Shown: positions 3 through 53,458 of the stretch, one piece after another | Numbering within the stretch: the stretch's first letter is position 1 | Layout of the letters: every line of letters starts with the position of its first letter | Translations under genes and position numbers: made by a program | The notes under the pieces: generated by a model | The model's input: only the letters and a program-made list of their open reading frames with translations | The model's database searches: none | Told to the model about the DNA's origin: nothing | DNA from: a virus | IMG/VR virus record: IMGVR_UViG_3300045253_000023 | Location: 1-64,000 of that record | Direction: 5' to 3' (one strand) | DNA length: 64,000 bases

Positions 3-1172
3 AGATACTTCCGATCGCAATTTGTTAACAACTCCAATCCATCGGTTGATACAATCAATTGGAATCATCTCTCCTCGGACTCGGCTGCGAACTACACTCT
101 TATTCCTCCTGGAACCGTCTACAATTGGAGCGGAACAGCTCTCTACAATGAAGATACCTTTGCTGCGGATTCAGCAGGAGTAGTCTTCCAACCAAATTCA
201 TTCCGCCAGAACTACATGAGCAATATTCCTCCGTCGGACTCGGCCGTCGTGAATATCGCTTGGGTTCGAATTGGTTCAACGACCTCTGGTGGTTCCGACC
301 CAACATGGGCGACCAATTCAACCTACAATTTCGGGGATGTTGTTAAATTCAACGATGCGACTCTCGGTTGGGGTCGTTACCAGCTCGTCAAGCCTCTGGA
401 TTCCCCATTCCTTTCAACAACCAATCCAGACAATGATTCGTTGTACTGGTCTCTTGCGGCCTCTAATTACCAATTTGATCAAGAGACTTCCTACAATTCA
501 TTGAAGTGGAAGGCTCTTCCTTCCCCTTCTATCAATCCGGAACTAATCGGTATCTCCGACCCTGGCGACTTCCCTGGTTACTGGTTGAATCATGATGGCT
601 GGCTCGACTCTGAAAAGAAGATTCAGGACTCATTCTTCTATCAGGACTTCTCGTATCAAGTCACCTGCGATCTCGACCAAACCGCATTTCGTCAGCCATT
701 GATCAATATTGCACATCCTGCGGGCTATCAATTATTCAACGTCGTGTCTTCTGTCGGAAATTTGCCTCTATACAGTCTTGCTCTGGGTATGCCGCTGCCT
801 CTCTATCCTCCAAACTCGGCAAAACTTGATCTGAGAACCCCGAATTATCCAAATGTCATCTTCACTATTGAGTGGATGAATGATAGAAGCGCATTTCCAT
901 TCGATATTTCATTGGCAGACGCAAATACCAGTCGGATTTCTTCCTCTGTAGTTTCCACGTACTCCTTGCAGACGGATTATTCAACTTTCCAGCGATACAG
1001 AGAAGCCAATCTAGTGTTCGAGCAGGACATCGTTGATAACACGGATGTCGTCGACTTTGCGATCCTAGGAGGCGGCAACAACGTGCTTGTCTTTAACAAC
1101 GGACTCAAGCTCCCTTGCGTGCCGAAGAAGGAGTATGTTCTCTCTGGTAATCCACGATACATCCTTCCATAG
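3..1172 (+). CDS. Baseplate wedge initiator gp7-like protein, C-terminal part (5' truncated by window)
   Basis: The frame is open from nt 3, upstream of the ATG at 216. Contains the GYW..HDGWLDSEKKIQDSFFYQDFSY...HPAGY motif typical of T4-like gp7 C-termini and lies upstream of gp8. Confidence 0.75.
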   Translation, partial: RYFRSQFVNNSNPSVDTINWNHLSSDSAANYTLIPPGTVYNWSGTALYNEDTFAADSAGVVFQPNSFRQNYMSNIPPSDSAVVNIAWVRIGSTTSGGSDPTWATNSTYNFGDVVKFNDATLGWGRYQLVKPLDSPFLSTTNPDNDSLYWSLAASNYQFDQETSYNSLKWKALPSPSINPELIGISDPGDFPGYWLNHDGWLDSEKKIQDSFFYQDFSYQVTCDLDQTAFRQPLINIAHPAGYQLFNVVSSVGNLPLYSLALGMPLPLYPPNSAKLDLRTPNYPNVIFTIEWMNDRSAFPFDISLADANTSRISSSVVSTYSLQTDYSTFQRYREANLVFEQDIVDNTDVVDFAILGGGNNVLVFNNGLKLPCVPKKEYVLSGNPRYILP

Positions 1173-1318
1173 CCTGACCAAACCTTCTAGAGCATCAAAC
1201 ACTTTAGAAGGTTTCCAATCGAGCCACGTTCACATTTACTCCCTCACCAGGGCAAAAGTGATATCGCAGCCAATAGAGCCACAAGATTGTTCTTCGTCAA
1301 GTATCTCTGCACAACGTC

Positions 1319-1325
1319 ATAAGTA
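1319..1325 (+). promoter_or_regulatory. Putative late promoter ATAAGTA
   Basis: Recurrent (C/A)TAAGTA motif about 40 nt upstream of a structural gene start; resembles T4 TATAAATA. Confidence 0.6.
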
Positions 1326-1366
1326 CATCATCTGCCCCATACAACGTCATTTTACAGGAATAACCA

Positions 1367-2452
1367 ATGTCAATCGTCATCACCAAAGACTTTGTTCAGA
1401 CAACGCTCGCAGCGCCTGCGGGATCATCTGATGTCACACTCACAGTCAACACTGCCACTACTCCATTCCTGAACATTCCTACTCCTACAGGCTCTCAGCT
1501 TGGCTACCTGGTGTTGTGTGATGACCTGAACAACCCGACCAAGTTCGAGATTGTTTCGTACACAGGATACTCTTCAGGAACTGTCAGTGGTGTGGTACGT
1601 GGACTCGGGGGAACCAGTGCTACAACTTGGCTTGCTGGACACTTTGTCTACATGGCTCCATTGTCATTGAGTACTGCTGTTCCTATCTGGTTGCAGAACA
1701 TCTCAAATGGTGCTGTGACATACATGGGTGGCAATGTTGGTATTGGGACTGTCACTCCTGCCAAGACATTGGATATCGTGGGAACATTGGGAGTGAGTGG
1801 AGATGTTGCTCTGGCGACTACTCTCCACGTGACTGGAACAACCACTGCTGCGCATGTGGATGCCACGACAATCAACACCTCTGGAGATATCACCTCTGCT
1901 GGGAACCTCGTTGGTGCGCATCTGGCTATCCCAGGAAGCGTGGCACTTGGCAGCTACAAGCTGGGAACATTCACTCCAACGCTAATTGGTGGCACATCTG
2001 CAGGAACTGCTGTCTATACAACTCAGACAGGAAACTATGTGATCATTGGACGCATGGCGATCTTGCAGTTCTCCATTGCTGTGAACTGGCCATCTGTCCC
2101 ACCATCTGGACAATTGATCATCTCTGGTTATCCAAGTGGCATTGGCTCTGTGGCTGGTTTCTCTGGCAGCTTCTCCAACTTGCTGGGATTTCTGCCATTC
2201 AAGGGATTCACCAACAACACAGTGCATTCCCCAACCATCATCCAGAACATGGTGAACATTGTGCCATTGACCATTGCAAATGCTGGTAATGCTGGCATTG
2301 TGATCTCTCGCAACCTGGCATCCAATGACCAGTCCCTGGGAACTCCTGACACTTCTCAGCATGACATCTTTGATGCGACATACATTGCATCCACAACAAC
2401 TGGTGTGACTCTCACAGGCACCATCTCATTCTTGACAGATGCAGAGGCATAA
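1367..2452 (+). CDS. Baseplate/short fibre-type structural protein
   Basis: 361 aa with ACAGGA SD. N-terminal EIVSYTG...VVRGLGGTSA segment, GNVGIGT fibre motif and GTFTPTL...GNYVIIGR fibre C-terminal domain. Confidence 0.6.
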   Translation: MSIVITKDFVQTTLAAPAGSSDVTLTVNTATTPFLNIPTPTGSQLGYLVLCDDLNNPTKFEIVSYTGYSSGTVSGVVRGLGGTSATTWLAGHFVYMAPLSLSTAVPIWLQNISNGAVTYMGGNVGIGTVTPAKTLDIVGTLGVSGDVALATTLHVTGTTTAAHVDATTINTSGDITSAGNLVGAHLAIPGSVALGSYKLGTFTPTLIGGTSAGTAVYTTQTGNYVIIGRMAILQFSIAVNWPSVPPSGQLIISGYPSGIGSVAGFSGSFSNLLGFLPFKGFTNNTVHSPTIIQNMVNIVPLTIANAGNAGIVISRNLASNDQSLGTPDTSQHDIFDATYIASTTTGVTLTGTISFLTDAEA

Positions 2453-7600: not shown

Positions 7601-10600
7601 CATTCCTCACAGGAATGCGCGCTACACCATGGCGGACATCTCCAAGCTGGAACAGCGCATTCAGAATCTTGAAGAGTATGTGTCATTGTCATTGCTTGAA
7701 CAGAATGCAAATGATCTTCAGATCACTGATCCAAACACTGGATTCGACTCATTCAAGAGCGGCATCTTCGCTGATCCATTTACAGACAACAGTCGCGCAA
7801 ATGTGTACGATCCACATTACCGCATCACTGGATACTCTGCGAACCAGTCTGCAACAACACCAGTTGAATTCTGGAACATGCCAATGACTGTTCGCACTGG
7901 TTTCGCTACCACTGCAAAAGTCTGGAAAGACCTGGTCACATTGCAGCCAACTGGCGTCACCATGTTGTGCTCTTCATTGTATGCAACAGAGACATTGAAT
8001 GTCAACCCATATCTCTTCTATGTTTGGAAGGGTGGCGTGACACTGAATCCTGCTGTTGACACATGGTATGACACTGTTTGGCTTCCAACCATCAACATCA
8101 CTGAAGGTTCATGGGACCCACCAGCTGGATTCAATCCAAACCCTGTCATCGACACCATTCAACAGAACTGGGTCGGCTTTGTTCCTGGTGCAGCTGTCAA
8201 TGTTTCGTCACTGACCAATGTTCCATCTGGCGCAACATCTGTGCCTATCGATGGCAGCCTGGGTTCTTCAATCACCCAGCAGCTCGAACAGACCATCGCG
8301 GCAATTGGCGGTCACTGGCAAGGTGGCACCATCATCCCAGCCACACCAATTTCAAACGGAGAGACATTCAGAGTGACGTCGCTGACAGGTGACGAGATAA
8401 GCCTGCCTCCTTCCTCGACAATGCCTAACCTGCCAGGAATTGGTCTCCTGTTCCAATCCAATGGAGCAGTGGCAAATGCTCCTCTCGGCAACAATGGTTG
8501 GAACACAGGACTCAACATTCCAATCAACATCTCATCCTCATCCACTGTTGGTGACATTGGTGGATTGGGCAGCCTGTTCCAGAACAGTTCTGGTGCAGCT
8601 GTGTTGTCTCCACTGTTCCGTGGTGTTAATGGTTTTGGTGACACATACTCCAAGCTGTCTGTCACTCAGACCACAACCACAACCACAACCTCTTCCCTTG
8701 TCAAACACACCCAGCAACTGACATCGAACCGTATTGTCTCGACTACACAAGAGCCATACATGCGTTCGCGTCAAGTCAACTTCATTGCTACTGGCTTCCG
8801 TCCAGGCATGAGTGTTGTGGGCACATTGGACAAGAAGCCAGTCACACTGGTTGTTGACAGTCGCTACAAGACATCTGATGGTCGTTTCGTGACTTCACCA
8901 GATGGAACCATCGAAGGTTCGTTCTTCATTCCACAAAACACATTCACCGCAGGAACCAAGTTGTTCCAGTTGAATGACAGCAATCTCGATGCCGCTGGTC
9001 AGTCTGCACCAACCTCTGGTGGTTCTGCGAACTACACTGCGTTCGGATACCTGATCACAGAACAACAGACAATCACAACGATTCGTTCTGTTGATGTCGT
9101 GACCACAACCGAAACCACACAGAATGTTGATGTCAACATCCAGGTCTACTTGGATCCACTGGCGCAATCATTCCTGGTCTCCATTCCAGGTGGCGTGTTC
9201 TTGAGCAGCTGCCAGTTGTTCTTTGCTACCAAGAGCGGCGACTTCTCTGGTGCGAATGATGGAGTCACCGTCAATGGTCAGCCATTGTCTGGATACCTGG
9301 CATCTGTCTATGGTTCATCGTATCCGAAGGATGTCAACAATTCAGCTCCAATGCTTGGACAAGGACAGTTGATTTTGGGACCACCTGGTTCGCAGAAGGT
9401 CAAGGGCGTTCCATTGTCCATCTACTTGGTCACAATGGTCAATGGTCAACCAACATCACACATTGTGCCATTCTCCAAGGTCACATTGTATCCAGATCAG
9501 ATCAATTCAAATCCTGTTGTTCCAAGATTTGGACGCACAACAATCACATGGGCAGACCCAATCTACCTGAATGAGAATCAGGAATATGCTCTTGTCATCT
9601 CGAGCTCATCCAAAGAATACAACGTTTGGACAGCAACACTCAGCAAGCAAGACATCTTCCAGCATGGTGCAGCAAATCCTGGTCAGGGTATTGCTCAGCA
9701 GGCATTCTTGGGCGAATTGTTTGAATCCAAGAACAGCAGCACATGGGTTCCAAATCCACTCACCAATCTCGCATTCGCTCTGTACTACTATCAGTTCGCA
9801 GCATCGAACACTGTGGGCTTGGCTGATTCCAAGAAGATCGATGACGTGTCATTTGCGGGCAAGAACTTCACTGTCTACAATCCAACATCGACATATGATC
9901 CATTGTCGATTGTCTTCTTCTCATGGTCCAATAGTGATGATGGTTCGCAGCCAGACAATACTGGATTCTTCCAGAATCTGAACAACACAACCAATCCAGC
10001 TGGACAAGCGCCTGCGTCATTCAGCGGCGGAACAACAACATACAACACCGCATTCTGGTCTCAACTTGACCCAACTGGCGGCGCGAATGCTTATGATCCA
10101 GTCAACATGCAGGCAGTTCGCTATGGTTCGGCAGTCACACCAATCATCGGGGAACTGTCTGTCAAGGGAACAAGCACACTTTACCAGCACGTGTTCTACC
10201 CAACAACTGGCGGCGCTGGATTCATCCCAACTGGCTTGACATACCATCCAGTCACGAACATGGACATCAATGATGTCTCTGCTTTGGACTTTGGATCATC
10301 GGGTTCAGTCAATGTTGAGAAGCTGGTTGACAATGCTTCCGGAACGACACACAACTATGCTATTCTGGCAACATTGTCGTCGACCAATCCAAACTTGACA
10401 CCAGTGCTCGATAAGCAACAGATGCGTGCTGTATTGACTCGCAACTTGGTCCATGGTATTGATCCAAATCTTCTGTGGGGCGGACAGAACTTCGGCGACA
10501 TCTTGTCGACCATGAGTGGTTCTGGTATCCAAGCCGCATTCGACTTGGCAAAACTCGCATCAGTTGTGTACTCACCAAATGCTGTCATCTTTGTTGGTGG

Positions 10601-11936
10601 CGCAACCAATGTGTACTACTACAACGCATCCGGAAGCAACATCGACTATTCCGCTGTTTCTGGTGGAACACTCGAAGCAACATGGCGTACAGACAAGGGT
10701 CTCGGTAAGTGGAAGGTTGCGAACGGATTCGTTCCACCATTCATTGATGGTATCCCAGGTGTCGGTGACGCAGGTGCATATGTCTCACAGACAGTCAATT
10801 TGTCAAACCCATCTGACAACCTGACAGTGATTCTCGATGTCATGAAGAATCACAACTCATACATCAATGTGTACTACCGTACTGGCGCAGCCAATGATGA
10901 CTTCTTGTTCTCTGGTGCATACAACCAGAGTTCTTTGGACCCATCAATGTTCGTCAACCAGCCAATGAAGCTGAAGTATTTCGGCAAGACAGGCGACGCC
11001 ATCTTCTTGACAGGTAAAGACCCAGCAACTGGCACTATCAATCCACAGATGTCTGTCTCTTCATTCGAGAGTTTGAATGATCAGGCACCATCTCCTGGCG
11101 CCAGCGGCAACCTGCGATACAAGATTCACATCTCTGCTGTCTCTGAGCTCAAGCAGTTCGCTGATGGTTTGACATATGACTCAACAGGCAACATCAACAA
11201 TATCCAAGGATATGGTTCTGATCCAGTTGTTGGATCATTCTACACCAACGTGCAGAATGTGTTCGCAATGTTGGCATCTGACAACTCATTGGAGAACTTG
11301 CCTTCGAACCATCTGCCAAATTGGAGCTCAACAGCGGCATACGCAGTTGGCGACATTGTCAACACTTCCTTTGTCTTCCCAGTATCTGGAAGCCCACAGG
11401 AATTGCAAGACTTCCGTGTTTGGAAGTCCAATGCTCTCATTGCTGATCAGTGGAGCGCAAGTCCAGGAACATACGCAACCAACGACATTGTTGTTGTGCC
11501 AAATGTTCAGGGTCTGCCATATGTTGCATACAAGGCAAATGCTTCGACAGTCGGCACAGATGTCCCAGGCACATCCAGCAAGTGGGATTTGCAGGTCAAC
11601 TCAACCACCAACAATCCAATCCCAGCATTCGGCAAGGGCACCAAGCCAACTGCACTTGGAACAGCATGGACAGAGATTCCAACAATCTCACTGCGTTCAT
11701 CGTTGAAGGTTGAATCTGACTCCAGCTGGAAGCCAATGTCTCACAAGACTCCTGTCACCAGCAATGCAAACTTGGCTGATGGTCAGTTCTATGAGTACAC
11801 CTATGTTCCTGCTGTTGCTCCATCAACTGCGTTCTCGCAATTTGCGGTTCGTGTTGACTTGAGAACATCGCAGACACAGATTTCTCGTTGCTATGTACCT
11901 CAGATCAAGAACTTGCGCGCAATCGCAACACTGTAA
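4671..11936 (+). CDS. Very large baseplate/virion structural protein (VrlC/DUF4815-like)
   Basis: 2421 aa with PYYDDF...IMFNPARAVQARELTQL, NAPGADRY, RYTMADISKLEQRIQNLEEYVSLSLLE, DPLAQSF and terminal P.IKNLRAIA motifs; follows gp8. Confidence 0.85.
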   Translation: MSYQKFGSAAPYYDDFLASNNLLRIMFNPARAVQARELTQLATILQNQVAQLGNFIFKDNSNVFQAQINVSQKKPTCTIQQFAVLYNSGTHTWAPDGSTLVNILPSWIGKTFQNTDPHGSTAASKTITITGFQLPPGALPILFYEFSGADVAATDVFFDSDITGTSVGGITIATNATRSLTAECGEGIIWCRGHFVTIPAQSTIITVDAQDGKTYQVGFTITERVVTSTTEGIGLSLDDPANGSPNANAPGADRYQITPTLTSYDVNDTTVTQDFLNNFAPFVLVENAVVTDDGKNQPQFAAILDIMAKRTYDTNGDFIVDPFTMVLKEVAASVTAKPGHTLDETIAGYPGYDAAFSTAHADYLVSELNPGTAFVRGYEIQTFLTTRILVKKGRDVLGLQDVVVPVNSPFFLVANLSPLGSSIIGSADPDGQGNNLAGSGGAWLNFNHMEEINITSAPNGQGRVLSRARLHSIDRSGGVIRLYIIPGNIPGTPVIPVWGGSHGASYYSEGSLVYYTLGGIAKVYECLNNSGTFNSTIAPPDDSTNWEYIEDIAKFQTPGAVEPIQFQNLSAARSIVSVAQNNNYVNLALDASDPNNVFPIYGSNPIPLIYGVPGTQVVDALPTEMSIGTVYTYTGTVSGGNISFTSNAVSGGTFNAAETDLIVFAYVVSSSVSGATNQLLDPNQITVSGGLTSTVTLGFGSVHVAGHTGLNNGDVVTVALKETRSQIEARTKTLSSVTAQNISIADSSTDLLILSDEDVAHIVSVVQLSNNTDTSFNTAAYGGTGAGRILSNLELIKLSFDNGQRDFYYDYGSVSGFSNLYHSQYKATLAGPTVYQVNYVAYQHESNSNKLFFNKNSYSNLIGSEANLPQYPIYRSPVYGNFDLQKSIDFRRKTSEMGNTLINILMPQQFTVLELPGTTTHYVSRYDVLWVDKTGQFGITNGVPSTNPVEPVPPPNTMTLYTLGIFPYTFNTSNVQIIPHRNARYTMADISKLEQRIQNLEEYVSLSLLEQNANDLQITDPNTGFDSFKSGIFADPFTDNSRANVYDPHYRITGYSANQSATTPVEFWNMPMTVRTGFATTAKVWKDLVTLQPTGVTMLCSSLYATETLNVNPYLFYVWKGGVTLNPAVDTWYDTVWLPTINITEGSWDPPAGFNPNPVIDTIQQNWVGFVPGAAVNVSSLTNVPSGATSVPIDGSLGSSITQQLEQTIAAIGGHWQGGTIIPATPISNGETFRVTSLTGDEISLPPSSTMPNLPGIGLLFQSNGAVANAPLGNNGWNTGLNIPINISSSSTVGDIGGLGSLFQNSSGAAVLSPLFRGVNGFGDTYSKLSVTQTTTTTTTSSLVKHTQQLTSNRIVSTTQEPYMRSRQVNFIATGFRPGMSVVGTLDKKPVTLVVDSRYKTSDGRFVTSPDGTIEGSFFIPQNTFTAGTKLFQLNDSNLDAAGQSAPTSGGSANYTAFGYLITEQQTITTIRSVDVVTTTETTQNVDVNIQVYLDPLAQSFLVSIPGGVFLSSCQLFFATKSGDFSGANDGVTVNGQPLSGYLASVYGSSYPKDVNNSAPMLGQGQLILGPPGSQKVKGVPLSIYLVTMVNGQPTSHIVPFSKVTLYPDQINSNPVVPRFGRTTITWADPIYLNENQEYALVISSSSKEYNVWTATLSKQDIFQHGAANPGQGIAQQAFLGELFESKNSSTWVPNPLTNLAFALYYYQFAASNTVGLADSKKIDDVSFAGKNFTVYNPTSTYDPLSIVFFSWSNSDDGSQPDNTGFFQNLNNTTNPAGQAPASFSGGTTTYNTAFWSQLDPTGGANAYDPVNMQAVRYGSAVTPIIGELSVKGTSTLYQHVFYPTTGGAGFIPTGLTYHPVTNMDINDVSALDFGSSGSVNVEKLVDNASGTTHNYAILATLSSTNPNLTPVLDKQQMRAVLTRNLVHGIDPNLLWGGQNFGDILSTMSGSGIQAAFDLAKLASVVYSPNAVIFVGGATNVYYYNASGSNIDYSAVSGGTLEATWRTDKGLGKWKVANGFVPPFIDGIPGVGDAGAYVSQTVNLSNPSDNLTVILDVMKNHNSYINVYYRTGAANDDFLFSGAYNQSSLDPSMFVNQPMKLKYFGKTGDAIFLTGKDPATGTINPQMSVSSFESLNDQAPSPGASGNLRYKIHISAVSELKQFADGLTYDSTGNINNIQGYGSDPVVGSFYTNVQNVFAMLASDNSLENLPSNHLPNWSSTAAYAVGDIVNTSFVFPVSGSPQELQDFRVWKSNALIADQWSASPGTYATNDIVVVPNVQGLPYVAYKANASTVGTDVPGTSSKWDLQVNSTTNNPIPAFGKGTKPTALGTAWTEIPTISLRSSLKVESDSSWKPMSHKTPVTSNANLADGQFYEYTYVPAVAPSTAFSQFAVRVDLRTSQTQISRCYVPQIKNLRAIATL

Positions 11937-17067: not shown

Positions 17068-20000
17068 ATGTCGGGCATTCAGCCTCTATACATCAAGCCA
17101 AATGGCTCAGTTATCAAAAAGTCGGAGCTCACAGGCTCCGACTTGACTGATGTCAACAATGACGTTGGTGCGGCAGCTATTGCTGGCGGCGCGGGTGCAT
17201 CTCCGACTTCTCTGATTGTAACACATACACCAGTCAACTATTCAATTGGCGGAGCAATTCCGCCAGTGTCGAAATATGTCGACACACATCTTGCTGGTAT
17301 TGACACTGAGCTTGGAGTCATTCTTGGACTCATTGGCGGTGGTTCCTCTGGATGGAACACAGGAGCAGATTCACCAGTTCCAAGTGGCACAACCAATATT
17401 GATTGGACTGTGTACAATGCGTTCAAAGTAACGCTTCCAAGTCTACACTTCACACAACCAACAATCACAATAGCATTTACTGCGCCTCCTGCGTTGCCAT
17501 CAATGCTTGTGCTTGAACTTTTCCAACCAACACATTTGATTGGTTGGAGAGAAACAAATTTGGCTGGATCAACATTGCCATCTCTTCAGATTTCTGGTGG
17601 TGGCATCATTCCTGCTTCTTTGAATCAAAGTGAAACTTTGGTGCTGACTCTTTGGTGGGATGGCACCAATTACAACGTCACATCAATCAATTCCAGCGCA
17701 CAATATCCATATGGAGCACCAACATTTTCGACATTCAATGCTGGTCCTGGTTTGGTTTCTGATCCAGGGACAGATGGATTCATTCTGACGTCACATGGTT
17801 GGGATGTTCCAGCATTTGATGCTTCTGCTATCATCTCTGGTGTCTTTTCAACTGCACGCATTCCAAGTCTTGATGCCTCAATTATCACAACAGGTGTGAT
17901 CGCAACTGCGCGCCTGGGTTCTGGCACCGCTGCTGCAAACAGTTATCTTGCTGGCGATCAAACATACAAAAGTGCTCTTGTTCCTGCTTCTGTTGCAGCA
18001 ACAGGCACAGTTACTGGATCAAACATTTCTGGTTCAACATCCGGAACCAACACTGGTGACGTTACACTCGCAGCAGTGGGTTCAACTCCAAATGCGAATG
18101 CAGCAACATTGTCTGGTCAGGTTCTCAATCTACAACCAGCTAATGGCACAACACCTGGTGTATTGACTGCTCTTGCTCAAACAATTGGTGGTGTCAAAAC
18201 ATTCACATCCAATCCAATCATCACAGGAAGTCAACCACTTCTCGATATCACAGATACACATTCTGGTGGTAAGCATTGGCAGCTCCGTTCTGGTTTAGCT
18301 GGTGTTGATGTCCTTGACTTCTATAGTGTCAACAATTCCAAGACTCTCATCTCCTTCCAAGCAGATGGTAATGTCAACATCGGAGCTGGAAGCAACCCAG
18401 CCAACAACTCACGATTGTATGTGTTTGGCGGAGCAAATGGCGCTAACATCGATGTTCGTGGTGATGCCGCTGTTCAAGATCAAGCTGTCATTGAGCTAGA
18501 AGGCTCTGACTACGATACCAACTTCAACTCTGTTCGTGTTCAGAACTATGGTGTCGCCAATGTCTTCGGCAACACCATGGGTTACACCAACACCAATCTT
18601 CAAGGATTGATGTTCCAAGGCGTTGACACTGTCACCGCGATGGTTGTGGCACTGGGCAACTTCGACATCCACTTTGGAACCAACTTCAAAGAATGGATGG
18701 ACTTGACCAAGCTCGGCAATCTTGGTATTCACACAACATCACCAACTGCGAACTTCCAAGTCAACCAAGCAACATATGGTCCTGGCACAGTATCCAATGG
18801 AGCTGGCGGCACCACAGTGACTGGTGTCGGAACACAATTCACCAACACATTCAAAATTGGCGACACAATCACCATTGGTTCTGAAACCAAGGCAATTTCT
18901 GCAATTGCTTCAGACACATCGATGACCACTGCGTCATTCACCAGCGCACACAGTGGTCTTTCATATACACTTGTTGGCGGAACGCGATTCCAGGTCTTTG
19001 GTAATGGTGCAGCCACAATGGCTGGCACATTCACGGCTGGCAATTTCTCTGGAACATCTTCCGGAACAAACACTGGCGACGTGACGCTGACTGCTGTCGG
19101 TTCATCTCCATCGGCAAATGGCGCTACATTGTCTGGTCAAGCACTCACTCTTCAACCAGCTGATGGAACACATCCTGGATTGTTGACTTCTGGCGCACAA
19201 ACCATAGGCGGAGCGAAGACATTCTCTGCTGCTATTTCGGCATCAAATCTATCCGGAACCAATACTGGTGATCAGACAATCACCTTGACATCAGACGTCA
19301 CAGGCTCCGGAACAGGCTCGTTCGCTACGACAATCTCTGCGGCTGCCGTGACCCTTGCCAAGATGGCGAACCTCGCAGCAAACTCGATCATCGGTAACAA
19401 CACTGGATCGGCTGCTACACCTATTGCGTTGACTACAACTCAGACCAAGGCATTGTTGGCAATTGCTAACACCGATGTCAGTGGTTTGGGAACCATGTCG
19501 ACACAGAATTCAAACGCAGTCAGCATCAGCGGCGGAACCATTACAACCACTGGCTTGGCATCAGAGACATTCTCTACTGCTGCTGCGGTGTCTGCTGCTG
19601 GTTCAACTCAAGGCACAGCAACTGCCATCACAAATGATTTCAATGTGATCACCACAGTTGCTTCTTCAACTGGTGTTGTCTTGCCTACAGCAACCGTCGG
19701 AAGACGTATGGTTGTTGTTAACAAGGGTGCAAATCCTCTTGCTGTCTATCCTGCTTCTGGAGCATCAATTGATGCTCTCTCAGCCAATGCCGCAGTTACA
19801 ATTCCAGTTGCTGGTTGGGTTGAGTTTGACGCATCATCCACCACTCAATGGTATTCGACATTCAATGCCATCTCAACCTCGGCATTGACAGGTGATGTGA
19901 CAGCTTCTGGAACAACCAACACGATGGCAACCACCATCGCTGCTGGTGCAGTCACATTGACAAAGATGGCGAACCTTGCTGCCAATAGCATCATTGGAAA

Positions 20001-22416
20001 CAACACTGGTTCTCCTGCCACACCTATTGCGTTGACAGTTGCTCAGACATTGACATTGCTTGGCATCACCAGCGGAGCAAGTGTTTCTTCGGTGGCAATG
20101 ACTGTTCCATCAATCATGTCTGTTTCTGGTTCGCCAATCACAACATCTGGAACACTTGCTGTCACCCTGGCAACTCAATCTCAGAATCTATTTTTCACAG
20201 GACCTGCCTCTGGCTCAGCTGCGACACCAACATTCCGTGCCATTGTTCCTCTTGATCTCGGAACTGGTTCAGCTACAGCAAACAACGTGTTGCTTGGCAA
20301 CCAGACATGGGGTACTGTTCCAAATGCTGGATTGACCAATTCTTCGCTGACTATTGGAACAACAGCAATTTCTCTGGGAACCACAGCAGCAACATTGACA
20401 GCATTCGGAGCTGACCAAGAAACATTCTCGACAGCAGCAACTGTCTCAGCTGCTGGTTCAACTCAAGGTACAGCAACTGCGATCACCAAAGACTTCAACG
20501 TGGCAACAACTGTTGCTGCGTCGACAGGTGTTGTTTTGCCTACAGCTACAGTTGGTCGACGTATCATCGTCATCAACAAAGGCGCGAATGCCCTTGCTGT
20601 CTATCCAGCTTCTGGTGCAGCAATTGATGCTTTGTCTGCAAACGCATCTGTTTCTGTTCCAGTTGGTGGATGGATTGAATTCAATGCTTCAACCACCACT
20701 CAGTGGTATTCAACATTAAATGCAATGTCAACTTCAGCATTAACTGGAGATGTGACAGCTTCCGGAACAACCAACACAATGGCAACTACAATTGCCTCTG
20801 GTGTTGTCACTCTGGCGAAGATGGCAAATTTGGCTGCAAACTCATTCATTGGAAACAACACTGGATCACCAGCAACTCCAATCGCATTGACTGTCGCACA
20901 ATCATTGACACTGCTTGGTGTGACATCAGGCGCTTCTGTTTCTTCAGTTGCGATGACAGTCCCATCTATTCTGTCTGTTTCTGGTTCTCCAATCACAACA
21001 TCTGGAACACTTGCTGTCACACTTGCAACTCAGACACAGAACTTGGTCTTCACTGGTCCTGCTTCTGGTTCAGCTGCGACACCAACATTCCGCGCGCTCG
21101 TGGCGCTTGATCTTGGAACAGGTACAGCAAACAGTGGTGTATTCTTCCGTGGAGATATGACCTGGACCAACCAGCTCGCAGGCAATCTGATTTTGACTGC
21201 TGGCAACTCTGCGTTGATCGGAAACACAACAGCAACAACATTGAATTCGATTGCTCCAACTCTTCAAGTTGTAGGCACAACCAACGCCAAGGCATCTGGA
21301 ATTTTTGGACAATGGACTGCTGATGCTGTTGGTTCAACAATCCAGTTCTCCAAGAGTCGTGGTACTTCAATCGGAACTACAACCGCAACTGCCTCTGGCG
21401 ATGTGGTTGGTAAGCTAGATTTCTGGGCAGCCAATGCCAATGGTACATCTGCAATGGCAAATGCTGGATACTATCAAGTTGTAGTTGACGGTACACCAGG
21501 CACAACATTCTCTCCAGGTCGCCATGAATGGTACACAGCAACTGCTGCGGCTGGTCCAGCTGTCAAGATGACATTGACCAATGGTGGATTGCTTGGAATC
21601 GGTAATACACCACAATGTACGCTTGATGTTTCTGGATTCATTCGTCCTGTTTCTACTGCTGTTGTGGCTCCAACAGGCGGCAAGGGATTGGAGTTGTATT
21701 ACGACAGTGCTGGTGATACTGGTGGTGTTCTTGCATATGATCGTACAGGCGGAGCATATAAACCACTCTCACTCCGTGCTCTGAATTTCACATTTGATGT
21801 CAATGGCACAAATGCGATGGTGGTGACACTTCCAATAGCTGGTGTTGGTCAATTCCGAGCTGGCTCTGGTATATTGGCATGGGGTAGCAATCTCGGCACA
21901 ACTGCTGCCAACTACAATATTGGTGGTCAGGGATCATACACTGGTTGGAATGTAACTGGCGGCAACGGCGAAACAGATTTCATCAATCACAGAGGCGGTG
22001 GTGGCGGCGGATTCTATTTCTACAACACTGATGGATCAACATCAGTTACTGCCATTGCTAAGATCATTGGAAATGGTACTGCTCTCGGTCAATTCTTGGG
22101 AGCAAATTATGGATCAACCGAAATTGCCAAGGGCACAATTACATCAACTGTGACTCTTGACTTTACAGCTGGCATGTATCAATCATTCACATTGACAGCT
22201 TCAACAGCATACACAGTTACATTCACTGCTCCAACAAATCCATGTATGATCTATGTGAAGGTTACAGCACCATCTGGTACTGTGCCTGCTGGTACATGGC
22301 CAACCGTCAAAGGAACAGCATTGGCTTCTCCTATCACATCAAGCAAAGCCAACTTCTATGGATTGTTTTATGATGGCACAAACTATTGGAACATCAGTTC
22401 AGTCTTGAACCAATAA
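17068..22416 (+). CDS. Long tail fibre-like protein with internal duplications
   Basis: 1782 aa rich in Thr/Ser/Gly/Ala; QTIGGxKTF, GN(V/L)(G/N)I and SGTNTGD fibre motifs; related W/YDGTNY domains at both ends. Confidence 0.85.
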   Translation: MSGIQPLYIKPNGSVIKKSELTGSDLTDVNNDVGAAAIAGGAGASPTSLIVTHTPVNYSIGGAIPPVSKYVDTHLAGIDTELGVILGLIGGGSSGWNTGADSPVPSGTTNIDWTVYNAFKVTLPSLHFTQPTITIAFTAPPALPSMLVLELFQPTHLIGWRETNLAGSTLPSLQISGGGIIPASLNQSETLVLTLWWDGTNYNVTSINSSAQYPYGAPTFSTFNAGPGLVSDPGTDGFILTSHGWDVPAFDASAIISGVFSTARIPSLDASIITTGVIATARLGSGTAAANSYLAGDQTYKSALVPASVAATGTVTGSNISGSTSGTNTGDVTLAAVGSTPNANAATLSGQVLNLQPANGTTPGVLTALAQTIGGVKTFTSNPIITGSQPLLDITDTHSGGKHWQLRSGLAGVDVLDFYSVNNSKTLISFQADGNVNIGAGSNPANNSRLYVFGGANGANIDVRGDAAVQDQAVIELEGSDYDTNFNSVRVQNYGVANVFGNTMGYTNTNLQGLMFQGVDTVTAMVVALGNFDIHFGTNFKEWMDLTKLGNLGIHTTSPTANFQVNQATYGPGTVSNGAGGTTVTGVGTQFTNTFKIGDTITIGSETKAISAIASDTSMTTASFTSAHSGLSYTLVGGTRFQVFGNGAATMAGTFTAGNFSGTSSGTNTGDVTLTAVGSSPSANGATLSGQALTLQPADGTHPGLLTSGAQTIGGAKTFSAAISASNLSGTNTGDQTITLTSDVTGSGTGSFATTISAAAVTLAKMANLAANSIIGNNTGSAATPIALTTTQTKALLAIANTDVSGLGTMSTQNSNAVSISGGTITTTGLASETFSTAAAVSAAGSTQGTATAITNDFNVITTVASSTGVVLPTATVGRRMVVVNKGANPLAVYPASGASIDALSANAAVTIPVAGWVEFDASSTTQWYSTFNAISTSALTGDVTASGTTNTMATTIAAGAVTLTKMANLAANSIIGNNTGSPATPIALTVAQTLTLLGITSGASVSSVAMTVPSIMSVSGSPITTSGTLAVTLATQSQNLFFTGPASGSAATPTFRAIVPLDLGTGSATANNVLLGNQTWGTVPNAGLTNSSLTIGTTAISLGTTAATLTAFGADQETFSTAATVSAAGSTQGTATAITKDFNVATTVAASTGVVLPTATVGRRIIVINKGANALAVYPASGAAIDALSANASVSVPVGGWIEFNASTTTQWYSTLNAMSTSALTGDVTASGTTNTMATTIASGVVTLAKMANLAANSFIGNNTGSPATPIALTVAQSLTLLGVTSGASVSSVAMTVPSILSVSGSPITTSGTLAVTLATQTQNLVFTGPASGSAATPTFRALVALDLGTGTANSGVFFRGDMTWTNQLAGNLILTAGNSALIGNTTATTLNSIAPTLQVVGTTNAKASGIFGQWTADAVGSTIQFSKSRGTSIGTTTATASGDVVGKLDFWAANANGTSAMANAGYYQVVVDGTPGTTFSPGRHEWYTATAAAGPAVKMTLTNGGLLGIGNTPQCTLDVSGFIRPVSTAVVAPTGGKGLELYYDSAGDTGGVLAYDRTGGAYKPLSLRALNFTFDVNGTNAMVVTLPIAGVGQFRAGSGILAWGSNLGTTAANYNIGGQGSYTGWNVTGGNGETDFINHRGGGGGGFYFYNTDGSTSVTAIAKIIGNGTALGQFLGANYGSTEIAKGTITSTVTLDFTAGMYQSFTLTASTAYTVTFTAPTNPCMIYVKVTAPSGTVPAGTWPTVKGTALASPITSSKANFYGLFYDGTNYWNISSVLNQ
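19564..21123 (+). repeat. Internal duplication: two ~705-nt copies with 855-nt period
   Basis: The ETFSTAA...DLGTG block starts at 19564 and again at 20419; protein nearly identical, many synonymous differences. Confidence 0.9.
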
Positions 22417-32201: not shown

Positions 32202-32735
32202 ATGACAAAAGTTGATGATACATTTTCATCATTGAATGAACTTCTTGGCATCAATGCCGAAGAAAAACAAGAGATGATCTCTGTCGACGATGACAAAAAT
32301 GTCCAGAGTCTTGTGCCTCAAGACAATACTGTCATTGCTTTCAGAGAGAATACGAATGCGCCAGATAAAGGCCAGAGTGCCACGGATGATTTCAACTTCG
32401 CGCGGGAAGTCATTCATGACGCGCTCCAGCGCGCGCAGGACTTGGTTGCTGTCACGATCCGTGAAGCAAAGATCACTGGACATCCTATGGTCATGCAGGC
32501 TGCTAACCAAGCAATCAAGAACATTTCGGAGCTGGGCAAAGACTTGCTCGAAATACATAATAAAATCAAGGAGTTAAAGGCTGACGACAAACCTCAGCAG
32601 CCTGGCAAGACAATTATTGTTGAGAAGTCGACCCTTGAACTCTTGAGAGAACTCAAGAAAGATATGGCCATTATTGATGGTGAAGCAACAAGGATAGAGC
32701 ATAATGGATCTGAATCTCGAACCACCAGTTCCTGA
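32202..32735 (+). CDS. gp16: Terminase small subunit gp16
   Basis: DDFNFAREVI...GHP...LLEIHNKIK...STLELL pattern; overlaps the start of gp17. Confidence 0.8.
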   Translation: MTKVDDTFSSLNELLGINAEEKQEMISVDDDKNVQSLVPQDNTVIAFRENTNAPDKGQSATDDFNFAREVIHDALQRAQDLVAVTIREAKITGHPMVMQAANQAIKNISELGKDLLEIHNKIKELKADDKPQQPGKTIIVEKSTLELLRELKKDMAIIDGEATRIEHNGSESRTTSS

Positions 32736-40542: not shown

Positions 40543-41766
40543 ATGAACATGAAAGTCGAACTCACAGAAGAGATCGTCGGCAAGTGGCATGATGTCATCG
40601 AGGCAGAAGGCGCTGTCGCGATCAAGGACCCAACGGTCAAGAAGAACCTCATCCGCACACTCGAAGTCTCCGAGCGTACCCTTCAGGAAGAAACCACAAC
40701 TGGCGCAGTCGCAAACTGGGACCCAGTACTTGTTTCCCTGATTCGTCGTACACAGCCATCACTGGTTGCCAACCAACTCGTCGGCGTTCAGCCAATGACT
40801 GGTCCAACTGGCCTGATCTTCATCATGCGCGCGTTCTATTTCAACTCTGTCACATCAACACAGACAGAAACTTGGAATCAGGTTGCTCCTGATCCAAACC
40901 AGTCCGGAAACGGTTCTGGCGTGTCGATGACCACATCTGCTGCTGAGCAGCTGGGTACTGCGTTGGTGACCAACACTGGTTCCAACCCACAGCCAGTTCT
41001 GCCAACCGCACCATGGACAGAAATGAACTTCTCCATCGAAAAGAGCTCAGTCACTGCTGGCTCCCGCGCGATGAAGGCAAAGTACACTCGTGAACTTGAG
41101 CAAGACCTGCGCAACATTCACGGCTTGGACGCTGAGCAAGAATTGTCCACGATCCTTTCCGCAGAAATCACTGCTGAAATCGACCGCGAAATTCTCGCCC
41201 TGATCTTGTCCCAGGCTGTCAATGCTGGCAACTTCGACCTCAACACCGACACAGACGGTCGTTGGGAAGTTGAAAAGTACAAGGCTCTCGTCGTCAAGAT
41301 CGAGAAGGAAGGCAACAAGGTTGCACGCGGTACACGTCGTGGCAAGGCCAACTTCATCATCACCTCGGCAAACGTCGCTGGTGCGTTGAACATGGCAGGC
41401 AAGATTGACGCGTTGACCAACTTCGGTTCGTTCGCACCAAACACAGTCGGAATGTCTTACGTCGGTGTCTTGGCTGGAACATACCAGGTGTATGTCGATC
41501 CATATGCTACCACAGACTATGTCGTGGTTGGATACAAGGGACCAAACGTGTATGATGCTGGTATCTTCTACAGCCCATACGTTCCTCTTGAGTTCCTCCG
41601 CGCAACTGGTCAGGATGACTTCCAGCCACGTATCGGTTTCAAGACACGTTATGGTATCATCGCCAACCCATTCGGTGCTTACACAGACCCATCCTCGAGC
41701 TCTGCTCCAGGATACCTGGGATCAGGCAACCAGTACTACCGTCTGTTCACAGTTTCCTCGATCTAA
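40543..41766 (+). CDS. gp23: Major capsid protein gp23
   Basis: DPVLVSLIRR..P, GVQPMTGPTGLIF, EMNFSIEK, QDLRNIHGLDAEQEL, DAGIFYSPYVPL, FQPRIGFKTRYG. Confidence 0.98.
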   Translation: MNMKVELTEEIVGKWHDVIEAEGAVAIKDPTVKKNLIRTLEVSERTLQEETTTGAVANWDPVLVSLIRRTQPSLVANQLVGVQPMTGPTGLIFIMRAFYFNSVTSTQTETWNQVAPDPNQSGNGSGVSMTTSAAEQLGTALVTNTGSNPQPVLPTAPWTEMNFSIEKSSVTAGSRAMKAKYTRELEQDLRNIHGLDAEQELSTILSAEITAEIDREILALILSQAVNAGNFDLNTDTDGRWEVEKYKALVVKIEKEGNKVARGTRRGKANFIITSANVAGALNMAGKIDALTNFGSFAPNTVGMSYVGVLAGTYQVYVDPYATTDYVVVGYKGPNVYDAGIFYSPYVPLEFLRATGQDDFQPRIGFKTRYGIIANPFGAYTDPSSSSAPGYLGSGNQYYRLFTVSSI

Positions 41767-41795: not shown

Positions 41796-41824
41796 GAAAC
41801 CCGCGCAAGCGGGTTTTCTTGTTT
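41796..41824 (+). terminator. Rho-independent terminator after gp23
   Basis: GAAACCCGC-GCAA-GCGGGTTTT followed by a T-rich tail. Confidence 0.9.
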
Positions 41825-41834
41825 CCGGAAACCG

Positions 41835-41842
41835 TATAAGTA
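41835..41842 (+). promoter_or_regulatory. Putative late promoter TATAAGTA
   Basis: One mismatch from T4 TATAAATA; immediately after the terminator. Confidence 0.7.
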
Positions 41843-44384: not shown

Positions 44385-45893
44385 GTGAGTGATGTAACCA
44401 TCCAAAAACTGAATGACACTTTCCTGCTGGTCGACGCTGACATGTCGATTGCGGCAGAGATAAGTGATTTCTTCACATTCGAACCACCGAATGCCTTTTG
44501 GATGCGCAAGAAGCGCCCAATGTGGGATGGCAAGATTCGCCTCTACCACATGGACAAACGATTACTGTATGTCGGCCTGCTGACCCATCTTTTGGAGTTC
44601 TGCGACAAGTGGGGCTACAGTGTTGAACTAGACCAATCTCTCGTGCCAGAGATTGCCTCGGTGGATGACATTGAGGCGTTCATTGACAATCTGGACGTGC
44701 GCAACGAGGATGGTGACGAGATTGCTTGCTATGACCATCAGGCTGAGGCTGTTCAGCAGTGCATCCGCTTCGGCCGTCGAACCATTGTCTCCCCAACAGC
44801 ATCAGGCAAGAGCCTGATCATCTATATTTTGCTGCGCTGGTATGAAGCCAAGTTGCGTGCAGAAAACAAGAAAACACTCATTGTCGTGCCAACCATTGGA
44901 CTTGTTTCTCAGATGGCATCTGATATCTGGGATTACAGCAGTCAAGATGCAGAATTCGATGCTGAATATGATATCCTCAAGATTGCTGAAGGCTCTGACA
45001 AAAACTCAGAAACAGCTTGTGTCTATATCAGCACCTGGCAGTCCATCTATCAGGAATCACCTGAATACTTTGAACAATTTGGCATGATCATTGCAGATGA
45101 ATGCCATCAATACAAGGCGGATGCCATCAAAGGCATTCTTGAGAAGAGCATCAACACGCCATTGCGTTTTGGTCTCACTGGCACGCTGACTGCTGATGGA
45201 TCCAAATGCAACAAGCTCATCATCCAGGGATTGTTTGGTCCACAGATCAAGATTGCTTCAACGCGCGAGCTCATGGACAAGGGTATCATTGCTGGTATTG
45301 ACATCAACATCATCAACACGTACTACTCAGAAGAAACAGCTGAGTTTGCACGCCACATGGACTATCACCAAGAGATTGACTTCATCACCAAGAGTCAATC
45401 GCGCAATGAGTTTCTGACGAGAATTGTTTCCGCAGAAAAGAAGAACACGTTGCTGTTGTTCCTCAAGCAAGATCATGGTGAGAGGCTTTTTGAGATGGTG
45501 GTTGATGCCAATCCTGGTCGCCCAATCTATTTGATCTATGGCAAGCATCCTGCTGATGAGCGCGAAGAAGTCAGACGCCTGATGGAGACCCATACTGACG
45601 CAATTGCCATTTGTTCATTTGGAACGTTCTCAACAGGCGTCAATATCAAGAATATCCACACTGTCATCTTTGCCAGCCCATCCAAGAGCGCAATCCGCGT
45701 GTTGCAGTCTATTGGTCGTGGTCTACGAAAGCTGGCTGGCAAGACAGTGCTCAAACTGATTGATATCGTGGACATATTCCAAATTGGTAATCGCAGACCA
45801 AACAACTACTGCGTCCAACACTCTGTCGAGCGCATGAAGCTATATGCAGCTGAGGAGTTCGACTATAAATTGATTGATGTGGAGATAGAATAA
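44385..45893 (+). CDS. uvsW: SF2 DNA helicase UvsW
   Basis: WDGKIRL, SPTASGKSLIIY, ISTWQSIY, DECH, FGLTGTL, GTFSTGVNIKN, VLQSIGRGLRK. Confidence 0.97.
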   Translation: MSDVTIQKLNDTFLLVDADMSIAAEISDFFTFEPPNAFWMRKKRPMWDGKIRLYHMDKRLLYVGLLTHLLEFCDKWGYSVELDQSLVPEIASVDDIEAFIDNLDVRNEDGDEIACYDHQAEAVQQCIRFGRRTIVSPTASGKSLIIYILLRWYEAKLRAENKKTLIVVPTIGLVSQMASDIWDYSSQDAEFDAEYDILKIAEGSDKNSETACVYISTWQSIYQESPEYFEQFGMIIADECHQYKADAIKGILEKSINTPLRFGLTGTLTADGSKCNKLIIQGLFGPQIKIASTRELMDKGIIAGIDINIINTYYSEETAEFARHMDYHQEIDFITKSQSRNEFLTRIVSAEKKNTLLLFLKQDHGERLFEMVVDANPGRPIYLIYGKHPADEREEVRRLMETHTDAIAICSFGTFSTGVNIKNIHTVIFASPSKSAIRVLQSIGRGLRKLAGKTVLKLIDIVDIFQIGNRRPNNYCVQHSVERMKLYAAEEFDYKLIDVEIE

Positions 45894-51684: not shown

Positions 51685-51762
51685 GCCTTAATCTATCACC
51701 ACCCAAACCAAGGGAGTTTCAGTTCCCTTGATTTTCGTCATATTCCATACAGGAGTTTCATC

Positions 51763-52431
51763 ATGCAGTTATCTGAAAAGACCCTCACCGTTCTCAAGAA
51801 CTTTGCGAAGTTCAATGAAAACATCCTCATTGAGGAAGGTTCTGTCCTCAAGACAATGACAAACCAGAAGAACGTGTTTGCCACTGCCACCATTGAGGAA
51901 GAGTTTCCTCGTGAAGTGCCAATCTACAACCTGACTGAATTCCTCAATGCGCTTTCGTTGTTCAAGGCACCTGAACTTGAATTCGAAGATGCCTACATCG
52001 AGATCAAGGACACATCTGGACAGGGCATCAAGTATTTCTATGCTGACAAGAGTGTGTTGGCATATCCTGAGAAGGACATCGCCTTCAAGAAGAAGGACTT
52101 GGAGTTCAAGTTGACTGCGGTCAAACTTGAGAAGGTTCTGTTGGCAGCCCGTACATTGAACTTGCCAAATGTCACATTGGTCAATGATGGTGAGAAGTTG
52201 TTCCTTCGTGCCCATGATGCGGCCAATGCCACATCCAACAAGTTTGACGTCACCATCGATGACTTCGATGTTTCCGATGTCAAGGAATTCCAGGCTCACT
52301 TCAAGATGGAAAACCTGCGCTTGCTTGAACTGGATTATGATGTCGCTGTCAATCTTCAAGGCATTGCTTCTTTCAGCAATGAGAACTACAATCTGGTGTA
52401 TCTGATCGGATTGGCCACTGCCAAGAAGTAA
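51763..52431 (+). CDS. gp45: Sliding clamp gp45
   Basis: MQLSEKTLTVLKNFA, IYNLTEFL..LSLF, IKYFYAD, FKMENL. Confidence 0.95.
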   Translation: MQLSEKTLTVLKNFAKFNENILIEEGSVLKTMTNQKNVFATATIEEEFPREVPIYNLTEFLNALSLFKAPELEFEDAYIEIKDTSGQGIKYFYADKSVLAYPEKDIAFKKKDLEFKLTAVKLEKVLLAARTLNLPNVTLVNDGEKLFLRAHDAANATSNKFDVTIDDFDVSDVKEFQAHFKMENLRLLELDYDVAVNLQGIASFSNENYNLVYLIGLATAKK

Positions 52432-52501
52432 TCATTGCATCGGCACATAACTGGATCGCGCCGATTGTGATGGCGCGATCCATCACCAGAAGGAAGTCAT
52501 T

Positions 52502-53458
52502 ATGAGCAAGTTTGAAAAGAAACTTTGGGTTGAGAACTATCGTCCACAAACACTCAACGATGTGATTCTTCCGGAAACATTGAAGGCTGAGTTCCGAAAG
52601 TTTATCGAAGAGAAACAGGTGCCTCATTTGCTCCTTTCTGGACAAGCAGGCACTGGCAAGACCACTATGGCGCGTGTACTCGCAAACGAGATTGGCGCCG
52701 ACTTTTACATGATCAACGGCTCCAAGGAGTCAGGCATCGACACACTGCGCACGAAGGTCGTGTCGTATGCATCAACCACTTCTCTTGAACACCCAGGCCA
52801 GCCCAAGATTCTATTGATCGACGAGGCTGACTATCTGAACGCAAACTCATTCCAACCCGCATTGCGCGGCATCATGGAAGAAGTTTGGGAGAACTGTCGT
52901 TTCATCTTCACATGCAACTACAAGAACAGGCTGATTCCAGCCTTGCATTCTCGATGCACTGTGATTGACTTCTCATTCTCTGCCAATGACAAGATTGAGA
53001 TGATGGGCGCATTCATGTCTCGTTGCATGAAGATTCTGAAGGAAAACAATGTCAAATTCGATCCAAAGGTCTTGGCAGCATTCATCAAGAATCACTTCCC
53101 AGACATGCGTCGTACACTGAATGAGCTTCAACGCTATTCAACCTGTGGCACCATCGATGAAGGCATCCTGAAGGCATCAGGGCAAGACCTGATTGATCAG
53201 ATCGTGGTTTTCTTGAAGAACAAAAACTTCAAACAGATGCGCGATTGGGTTGACATGAATGAATCCATCGATGCTTCGGTGTTGTTCGACAAGCTGTATG
53301 ATGAACTCACTCCGTTCCTCGCTCCGCAATCTGTTCCAGACCTCATCCTGGTGTTGGATGACTATCAGAACAAGGCAGCCATTGTTGTGAATCAACGCAT
53401 CAATCTGGCTGCCTGTCTGACAACTCTGATGTCGACACTGGAGTTCAAAGCATCATGA
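52502..53458 (+). CDS. gp44: Clamp loader large subunit gp44
   Basis: WVENYRPQTL, GQAGTGKTT, IDEADYL, LHSRC, FPDMRR.LNELQRY. Confidence 0.97.
   Translation: MSKFEKKLWVENYRPQTLNDVILPETLKAEFRKFIEEKQVPHLLLSGQAGTGKTTMARVLANEIGADFYMINGSKESGIDTLRTKVVSYASTTSLEHPGQPKILLIDEADYLNANSFQPALRGIMEEVWENCRFIFTCNYKNRLIPALHSRCTVIDFSFSANDKIEMMGAFMSRCMKILKENNVKFDPKVLAAFIKNHFPDMRRTLNELQRYSTCGTIDEGILKASGQDLIDQIVVFLKNKNFKQMRDWVDMNESIDASVLFDKLYDELTPFLAPQSVPDLILVLDDYQNKAAIVVNQRINLAACLTTLMSTLEFKAS

Follow-up and report, generated by a model that had tools for sequence, protein, structure and literature searches.

The first 64,000 nucleotides of the IMG/VR virus record IMGVR_UViG_3300045253_000023 (hereafter the window) raise the question of how a four-base palindrome, CCGG, can be almost eliminated from a phage genome while one flanking class of it, TCCGGA, persists at its expected frequency. 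The record, complete at 161,561 bp and bounded by direct terminal repeats, represents an uncultured virus placed as a distant member of the T4-like phages. It has a DNA polymerase ~38% identical to cyanomyovirus polymerases and a capsid protein 43-46% identical to the proteins of Desulfovibrio, Methylophilales and Pelagibacter myoviruses and of Cr30; close relatives were found neither by DNA in the phage collection nor by DNA-polymerase peptides in IMG/VR. The analysis confirms the CCGG pattern as highly significant and not a coding artefact. It is probably explained by avoidance of a host nuclease that cuts CCGG, with a hypermodified thymine in a TC context shielding the TCCGGA sites. Site avoidance and thymidine hypermodification are each known, and their meeting in this genome has not been described before.

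Depletion of CCGG and the bases flanking its survivors

The window contains 13 copies of CCGG (starting at 537, 10339, 10630, 18041, 19061, 19253, 19307, 20762, 28111, 31136, 40904, 41825 and 52571), and all of them read TCCGGAA, as a sequence-only reading of this DNA had correctly reported in both position and context. The expectation of about 250 copies given in that reading is too high: a dinucleotide shuffle yields 88.5 +/- 9.4 and a synonymous-codon shuffle within genes 93.4 +/- 8.5, and TCCGGA itself is observed 13 times against 9.9 expected. The accompanying statement that several other tetramers are common stands for GCGC, CGCG, CCWGG and GATC, which occur near or above expectation, but not for GGCC, which is present 90 times against 155 expected in the codon-shuffle comparison of the window. 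A graded effect of flanking T on GGCC, seen against the codon shuffle, was rejected, as it is gone under a trinucleotide-aware null for the flanks.

Across the whole genome, CCGG is the most strongly depleted tetramer, and the depletion persists under the codon-preserving shuffle, with 38 copies against 236 +/- 12 expected (100 synonymous-codon shuffles, minimum 210). These copies comprise 34 TCCGGA, two TCCGGG, one TCCGGC and one ACCGGA; a 5' T is present on at least one strand at every one of the 38, an excess with p = 5e-29 when the bases preceding CCG followed by any base other than G serve as the null. Under the codon shuffle, TCCGGA lies at expectation (34 vs. 28.4), copies with T on a single strand are reduced to 4 from an expected 92, and copies without a flanking T are absent where 116 are expected, CCGG other than TCCGGA being down ~50-fold overall. 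Sites outside TCCGGA are thus few rather than many, amounting to 4 of the 38, each with T on one strand; three of these are under sequence constraint, two lying within tRNA-Met and tRNA-Gly genes and the third forming part of a perfect hairpin. The tRNA genes contain three CCGG sites in the whole genome, which carries 37 tRNA genes in one cluster and a permuted tmRNA (ARAGORN; genome 75,562-100,923 and 124,408-124,861, outside the window).

What defines the rule is the hexamer TCCGGA. The A in the seventh position, previously included in it, follows 23 of the 34 genomic sites and is mostly a coding effect (TCC-GGA-ACN, Ser-Gly-Thr), which in the window derives mainly from Ser-Gly-Thr codons of two giant genes that resemble fibre genes. 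There is nevertheless an enrichment of sites with a further T/A at the flanks, TTCCGGAA (p = 1.7e-5). The rule is independent of frame and strand, with sites in each of the three frames, on either strand and at nine intergenic positions. Among 358 Thr-Gly dipeptides, ACC-GGN is never used against 88 expected, and among 285 Ala-Gly dipeptides GCC-GGN is used once against 52 expected, while all 14 TCC-GGN codon pairs are TCC-GGA. Codon-pair bias, which had been named as a possible refutation, therefore does not reproduce the rule.

These observations also bear on whether restriction is involved at all. An origin in deamination of 5-methylcytosine at CCGG, in codon-pair bias or in avoidance of the phage's own host-degrading nuclease is highly improbable. 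Such an origin would agree with the somewhat low level of CpG-containing words overall (6338 CG dinucleotides against 8984 expected), but CGCG, GCGC and TCGA are without depletion in the tetramer counts, and deamination gives no reason to spare TCCGGA. Moreover, the rule is symmetric, extends to all frames and to intergenic DNA, and survives the synonymous-codon null, while the many purged 6-bp sites described below indicate host enzymes rather than a single phage nuclease. The general interpretation of the pattern as restriction evasion with a context rule holds.

Within the window, the TCCGGA sites at 536-541 (AAT CCG GAA) and 52570-52575 (CTT CCG GAA) are read in a Pro-Glu frame. Those at 10338-10343 (TCC GGA ACG, Ser-Gly-Thr) and 10629-10634 (TCC GGA AGC) lie in an open reading frame (ORF) of 2421 amino acids, and those at 18040-18045, 19060-19065, 19252-19257, 19306-19311 and 20761-20766 all encode Ser-Gly-Thr in an ORF of 1782 amino acids. 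Ser-Gly-Thr is likewise encoded at 28110-28115 and 31135-31140, and Ser-Gly-Asn at 40903-40908 in the major capsid gene. The site at 41824-41829 is intergenic, 3' of the capsid gene, and forms the centre of the palindrome GTTTCCGGAAAC; this 12-bp perfect palindrome (window 41818-41835) could act as a terminator or as a binding site.

The distribution of flanks narrows the choice of explanations. A symmetric specificity that accepts ACCGGA must also accept TCCGGA, and therefore no combination of palindromic enzymes gives this table, although such combinations do fit the tables of C48C1 (CCSGG plus ACCGGT) and ViI (RCCGGY plus CCSGG). With palindromic enzymes excluded, either both strands must carry a protective 5' T or the enzyme must be asymmetric and read VCCGG; both a VCCGG-type host enzyme and a context-specific phage modification had been put forward from the sequence, and they remain the two live explanations. 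The enzyme-based alternative holds that the host nuclease is itself averse to T, being an asymmetric or monomeric reader of VCCGG (equivalently CCGGB) or a CCGG enzyme steeply sensitive to its flanks, and that modification is irrelevant. One 5-bp specificity, VCCGG, would reproduce the whole CCGG table, including the purge of sites with one T. In addition, CCGG-family enzymes differ mainly in the flanking base that they read, examples being Cfr10I (RCCGGY), BsaWI (WCCGGW), AgeI, NgoMIV and Kpn2I. On the other side, no enzyme with VCCGG specificity is known to have been described. This alternative is considered rather unlikely in view of the evidence from other sites and other phages given below.

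Thymidine-hypermodification genes and other purged sites

By its predicted gene content, the thymidine-hypermodification pathway of this phage is of the Tet/JBP variety, and its genes all lie outside the window. They include a Tet_JBP dioxygenase with an HRD motif (Pfam PF12851; genome 141,684-143,120; E 1.9e-19), a candidate 5-hmdU DNA kinase, recognised as a P-loop Nucleotide Kinase3 protein by family match (Ploopntkinase3, PF18751; genome 143,617-144,210; E 2.7e-11; Walker A GxxxxGKT), and an amino-acid:DNA transferase (ADDT/AADT, aGPT-Pplase; PF18724; genome 103,074-104,129; E 2.5e-21; 76.9 bits against a cut-off of 26.2). The transferase has homologues in ViI-like phages and Cr30, and GNAT and glutamine amidotransferase (GATase) genes, recognised by Pfam, lie immediately upstream of it. 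Together with an unassigned ORF of 344 amino acids, the set occupies genome 100,894-104,129 and 141,684-144,210. The only gene of the thymidylate-synthase family scores as a true thymidylate synthase (TIGR03284, 161.7 vs. 108.35), which fits a post-replicative route of modification. No C5-methyltransferase was found in the genome (PF00145), and T is therefore the sole 5-methylpyrimidine available; ParB was not found in the genome either. Elsewhere, a GT2 glycosyltransferase gene overlaps a gene with an Nmad5 domain (genome 113,340-115,164), a pair that could possibly represent a second, glycosylating branch acting on a hydroxymethyl-pyrimidine; a small ORF upstream of the pair has no Pfam match.

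CCGG is not the only site to have been removed from this genome. Observed and expected counts under the codon shuffle are 0/42 for AAGCTT, 0/38 for AGATCT, 0/25 for ACCGGT, 1/23 for CCGCGG, 2/26 for AGCGCT, 3/31 for GGTACC, 4/21 for AGGCCT, 11/58 for CTGCAG, 1/12 for CGTACG, 0/11 for GCTAGC and 6/30 for GGATCC, and so many purged classical 6-bp sites imply that Type II systems abound in the host population. RGATCY (BstYI/XhoII-type) occurs 8 times against ~151 expected genome-wide, with no AGATCY at all. By hand count, all eight survivors read tGGATCY, and five of the six GGATCC read tGGATCCa; T occupies 13 of the 14 G-side half-flanks of the RGATCY survivors (p 7e-4). Three of these survivors lie in the window, each with a 5' T: tGGATCCa at 9151-9158 (RGATCY at 9152), tGGATCTg at 32705-32712 (RGATCY at 32706) and tGGATCCa at 45197-45204 (RGATCY at 45198), the last being T-flanked on both strands. 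The single surviving CCGCGG reads tCCGCGGa. A similar flank at GAGCTC was dismissed as a coding artefact (GAG-CTC-A.., Glu-Leu followed by Lys, Asn or Thr). A T-averse host nuclease would leave unexplained both the 5' T at eight of eight RGATCY survivors and at the lone CCGCGG, and the occurrence of a thymine-specific exemption in a phage with a thymidine-hypermodification pathway; it gains some support from the wide purge of T-containing sites, which suggests little general protection by modification. Among words of another kind, GGAGGT/ACCTCC (2 vs. 57 expected) and CCTCC (66 vs. 224) are scarce in the whole genome, which looks like avoidance of internal Shine-Dalgarno-like sequences.

The sequence-only reading had suggested a modified guanine or purine, such as 7-deazaguanine in a GA context or 2-aminoadenine, at the last G or the following A on both strands. 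It is true that the last G of TCCGGA is followed by A on both strands, and that a gene for a dATP/dGTP diphosphohydrolase-like protein (PF18909; window 54840-55508, + strand; E 9e-27) adjoins the DNA polymerase gene. This gene had been called 'DUF5664-like' and linked to altered purine pools; it is a PF18909 member and is not tied to the flank rule. DLP6 and Cr30, in which CCGG is normal, have an annotated triphosphate pyrophosphohydrolase or phosphoribosyl-ATP diphosphatase just 3' of regA, a possible counterpart of the PF18909 gene. Searches of the genome for the enzymes that purine chemistry calls for yielded neither TGT/DpdA (PF01702, with all positive controls matched) nor PurZ (PF00709), so that this explanation is close to refuted by gene content. 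Furthermore, although a GA is built into every GGATCC, this site has been purged wherever no T lies outside it, and the rule of a G followed by A fails on these survivors. Purine modification is hence scarcely credible. With purine chemistry wrong and genes for a Tet/JBP dioxygenase, a kinase and a transferase present, thymine, and not guanine or adenine, is indicated; the base of importance is more probably the T opposite the A that follows the last G.

A different kind of modification would be methylation by a TCCGGA-specific methyltransferase of the BspEI/Kpn2I type, supplied either by a host orphan gene or by an unrecognised phage gene, which would block an overlapping CCGG nuclease. Overlapping methylation is a known means of blocking a shorter site, and TCCGGA is a known methylase specificity. 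However, no phage methyltransferase was detected in the genome by PF00145 (C5), PF02086 (D12) or PF01555 (N6/N4), nor in the 215 called ORFs by the motifs [DNS]PP[YFW] (motif IV of amino-methyltransferases) and PCQ+ENV, MT-A70 and rarer methyltransferase families being covered through the motif scan alone. Protection by a host methylase would extend only to phage propagated in that host, and neither source would explain the T-flanked RGATCY and CCGCGG survivors, the enrichment of the second flanking T/A or the parallels in hypermodified phages. This possibility is accordingly very unlikely.

In the thymine-based explanation, the steps that we infer from the genes and counts concern the host enzyme, the modification and its sequence context, and would run as follows. 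A host nuclease cutting CCGG would select against its site, which would be lost through synonymous and intergenic changes. After replication, the Tet/JBP-type dioxygenase would oxidise T in DNA to 5-hydroxymethyluracil, with a preference for T-C (or T-G/C), the P-loop kinase would phosphorylate the 5-hydroxymethyluracil, the amino-acid:DNA transferase would exchange the phosphate for an amino acid, and the GNAT, the GATase and a further enzyme would tailor the adduct. The bulky major-groove adduct, which on either strand would lie a single nucleotide away from the scissile bond of C^CGG, would then block the nuclease. A single modified flank would be insufficient, leading to the purge of TCCGGB and VCCGGA as well, and TCCGGA would not be selected against because its 5' T is hypermodified on both strands.

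Surviving sites in other phages

If a modified thymine can shield a neighbouring G/C-only site, comparable survivors might be expected in phages with proven thymidine hypermodification. Purged G/C-only palindromes were defined as those observed at less than 0.4 of the composition expectation with at least four survivors, and the share of 5'-T half-flanks was compared with a trinucleotide-context null; bracketed counts give the survivors with T on both strands, on one and on neither. In the Bacillus phage SP10 (NC_019487), GGCC is present 40 times against 242 expected, with a T share of 0.68 against 0.25 ([15, 24, 1], p 1.5e-15), and 39 of the 40 survivors read TGGCC on one strand or both. BsuRI of B. 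subtilis recognises this tetramer. The Pseudomonas phage M6 (NC_007809) retains 9 GGGCCC against 67 expected ([5, 4, 0], p 6.5e-9) and 6 GCCGGC against 67 ([1, 5, 0], p 8.4e-5), and the Delftia phage phiW-14 (NC_013697) retains 24 GCCGGC against 78 ([5, 18, 1], p 3.6e-8) and 23 GGGCCC against 78 ([6, 17, 0], p 5.8e-5). PaMx11 has 4 GCCGGC against 67 expected ([3, 1, 0], p 1.9e-5), and ViI provides a weak case in CCGCGG (4 against 21, [2, 2, 0], p 0.01). The flank excess in these phages is T-specific, with A, C and G all falling. In all five modified phages, which represent four host genera, the purged G/C-only sites differ, yet the 5'-T polarity of the present genome, with the T next to G or C, is seen again.

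In seven phages without hypermodification, the 5'-T rule is weak or absent. Lambda shows [0, 0, 4] at CCGCGG and F116 [0, 6, 15] at CCCGGG, and the T-flank excess at GGGCCC and CCCGGG in D3 is not significant. The excess reaches at most p ~1e-3 in FelixO1, which has many unflanked survivors, and in the Bacillus phage SPO1 (NC_011421), which carries plain hmU and has 4 GGCC against 211 expected; P22, SPP1 and T7 have no purged site with enough survivors for the test. A T-averse host enzyme leaves unexplained why this polarity recurs in five hypermodified phages and hardly in the controls. As a separate observation on M6, none of its 676 CCGG sites reads TCCGGA. The CCGG table of ViI was rejected as a clean parallel: a T flanks 227 of its 235 sites (p 3e-58), but the flank classes (TCCGGG 0, CCCGGA 2) fit avoidance of RCCGGY plus CCSGG, which confounds the comparison.

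The CCGG rule was also sought in the dioxygenase-carrying relatives DLP6, Cr30 and C48C1, none of which has it. The Stenotrophomonas phage DLP6 (KU682439.2; 168 kb, 56% GC), whose Tet/JBP homologue is 59% identical and annotated as 'SNF2 DNA repair protein', lacks GGCC (0 vs. ~550-1000 expected) and CCGCGG (0). In C48C1 (OQ984149.1), CCCGG/CCGGG is absent and ACCGGT occurs once, a pattern of standard CCSGG plus AgeI-type avoidance, which shows that ordinary specificities, too, can produce CCGG tables dependent on the flanks. The relatives purge other sites, so that the CCGG rule belongs to this phage and its host in particular.

Several points weigh against a shield of hypermodified thymine. 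The modified base and the CCGG nuclease are both postulated from genes and counts. HpaII digests ViI DNA fully although 227 of the 235 CCGG sites are T-flanked, MspI alone being partially inhibited; a flanking modified T therefore does not stop every CCGG enzyme, and its effect must depend on the enzyme. The cutting of T-flanked CCGG by HpaII in ViI DNA also speaks for a T-averse host nuclease. T-containing palindromes (AAGCTT, AGATCT, CTGCAG and GGATCC) are also purged, and the loss of GGATCC despite its internal T-C means that the modification cannot be a general shield; a proven hypermodified phage behaves likewise, M6 having no RGATCY, BamHI or HindIII sites. When palindromes are compared with non-palindromes over all hexamers of this genome, they show no extra T-flank bias (Mann-Whitney p 0.41), and a law by which a T flank protects every palindrome was rejected on this ground. 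DLP6, with the same dioxygenase, has zero GGCC and no flank exemption, and the partly depleted GTAC of Cr30 is without T-flank excess. Finally, the comparison set is small, with five proven T-hypermodified and seven unmodified phages.

Taken beyond this genome, the proposal becomes that T-hypermodified phages in general purge G/C-only sites, which the modification cannot shield from within, unless a 5' T abuts them; the TCCGGA rule would be one case of this. Such a footprint is quite possible, if somewhat short of probable, and no description of the survival of T-flanked G/C-only sites was found in the literature searched. If true, it would reveal from sequence alone the thymine modification, its dinucleotide context (T-C/T-G), its reach of one base outside the site and the specificities of host nucleases, and it would explain the resistance of M6 and phiW-14 DNA to ApaI, NaeI and NgoMIV.

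Relation to known avoidance and hypermodification systems

Thymidine hypermodification by the 5-HMUDK/AADT pathway is established in ViI, M6, phiW-14, SP10 and PaMx11 (PMC5889632, PMC8989533), and gene sets from metagenomic contigs in which a Tet/JBP enzyme replaces the dUMP hydroxymethylase have been predicted to make 5hmU in situ (Lee et al., PMC8989533). For the phage thymine dioxygenases 5mYOX97 and 5mYOX176, post-replicative action with sequence selectivity has been demonstrated (O'Toole et al., PMC13229309), NTC being preferred by the ParB-independent enzyme and NTG by the ParB-dependent one; their role, whether in defence or in epigenetic-like regulation, was left open (PMC13229309). 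Digestion studies have shown that TG/TC dinucleotides are at the heart of the resistance seen in M6, ViI and phiW-14 DNA, that HpaII and MspI still cleave hypermodified DNA, with only partial cleavage by MspI in ViI, and that BspEI (TCCGGA) is blocked on ViI DNA (Flodman et al., PMC6449724). The G/C-only cutters ApaI, NaeI, NgoMIV and NarI were unexpectedly blocked, for which Flodman et al. tentatively blamed a flanking modified T, the chance of having one being only 0.25 (PMC6449724). The finding that the surviving ApaI and NaeI sites of M6 and phiW-14 are nearly all T-flanked would account for this puzzle of resistance in vitro.

Restriction avoidance and hypermodification are usually seen as alternative counter-defences, whereas here they appear interlocked at single-base resolution, with the target apparently kept only where modification can cover it. 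If this is correct, a k-mer statistic could predict thymine modification, its context and host restriction specificity for uncultured phages, predictions for which virion DNA would otherwise be required. It would also provide a functional test for sequence-specific phage thymine dioxygenases.

As in classical site avoidance, a short palindromic Type II target has undergone strong selection-driven loss together with other classical sites; the difference is that the loss is conditional on the flanks, only one of the ten flank classes (TCCGGA) being fully spared and half-matches being purged. The genome shares with the 5-HMUDK/AADT pathway its AADT (PF18724), P-loop kinase, GNAT and GATase genes, but 5hmU would here come from the action of Tet/JBP on DNA and not from a pool supplied by dUMP hydroxymethylase. 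With the 5mYOX enzymes it shares the Tet/JBP family and a phage background without a C5-methyltransferase, and the lack of ParB resembles the NTC-preferring subclass; selectivity for NTC or NTG after replication is what a T-C-specific shield at TCCGGA would require. The published work did not tie sequence preference to the survival of restriction sites. A parallel to the flank pattern is found in SP10, which has proven alpha-glutamylthymine and in which a G/C-only tetramer is purged ~6-fold with T-flanked survivors, whereas hardly any GGCC is left in SPO1, a relative of SP10 that carries plain hmU. One flanking T is usually enough in SP10, while both are needed in the phage described here.

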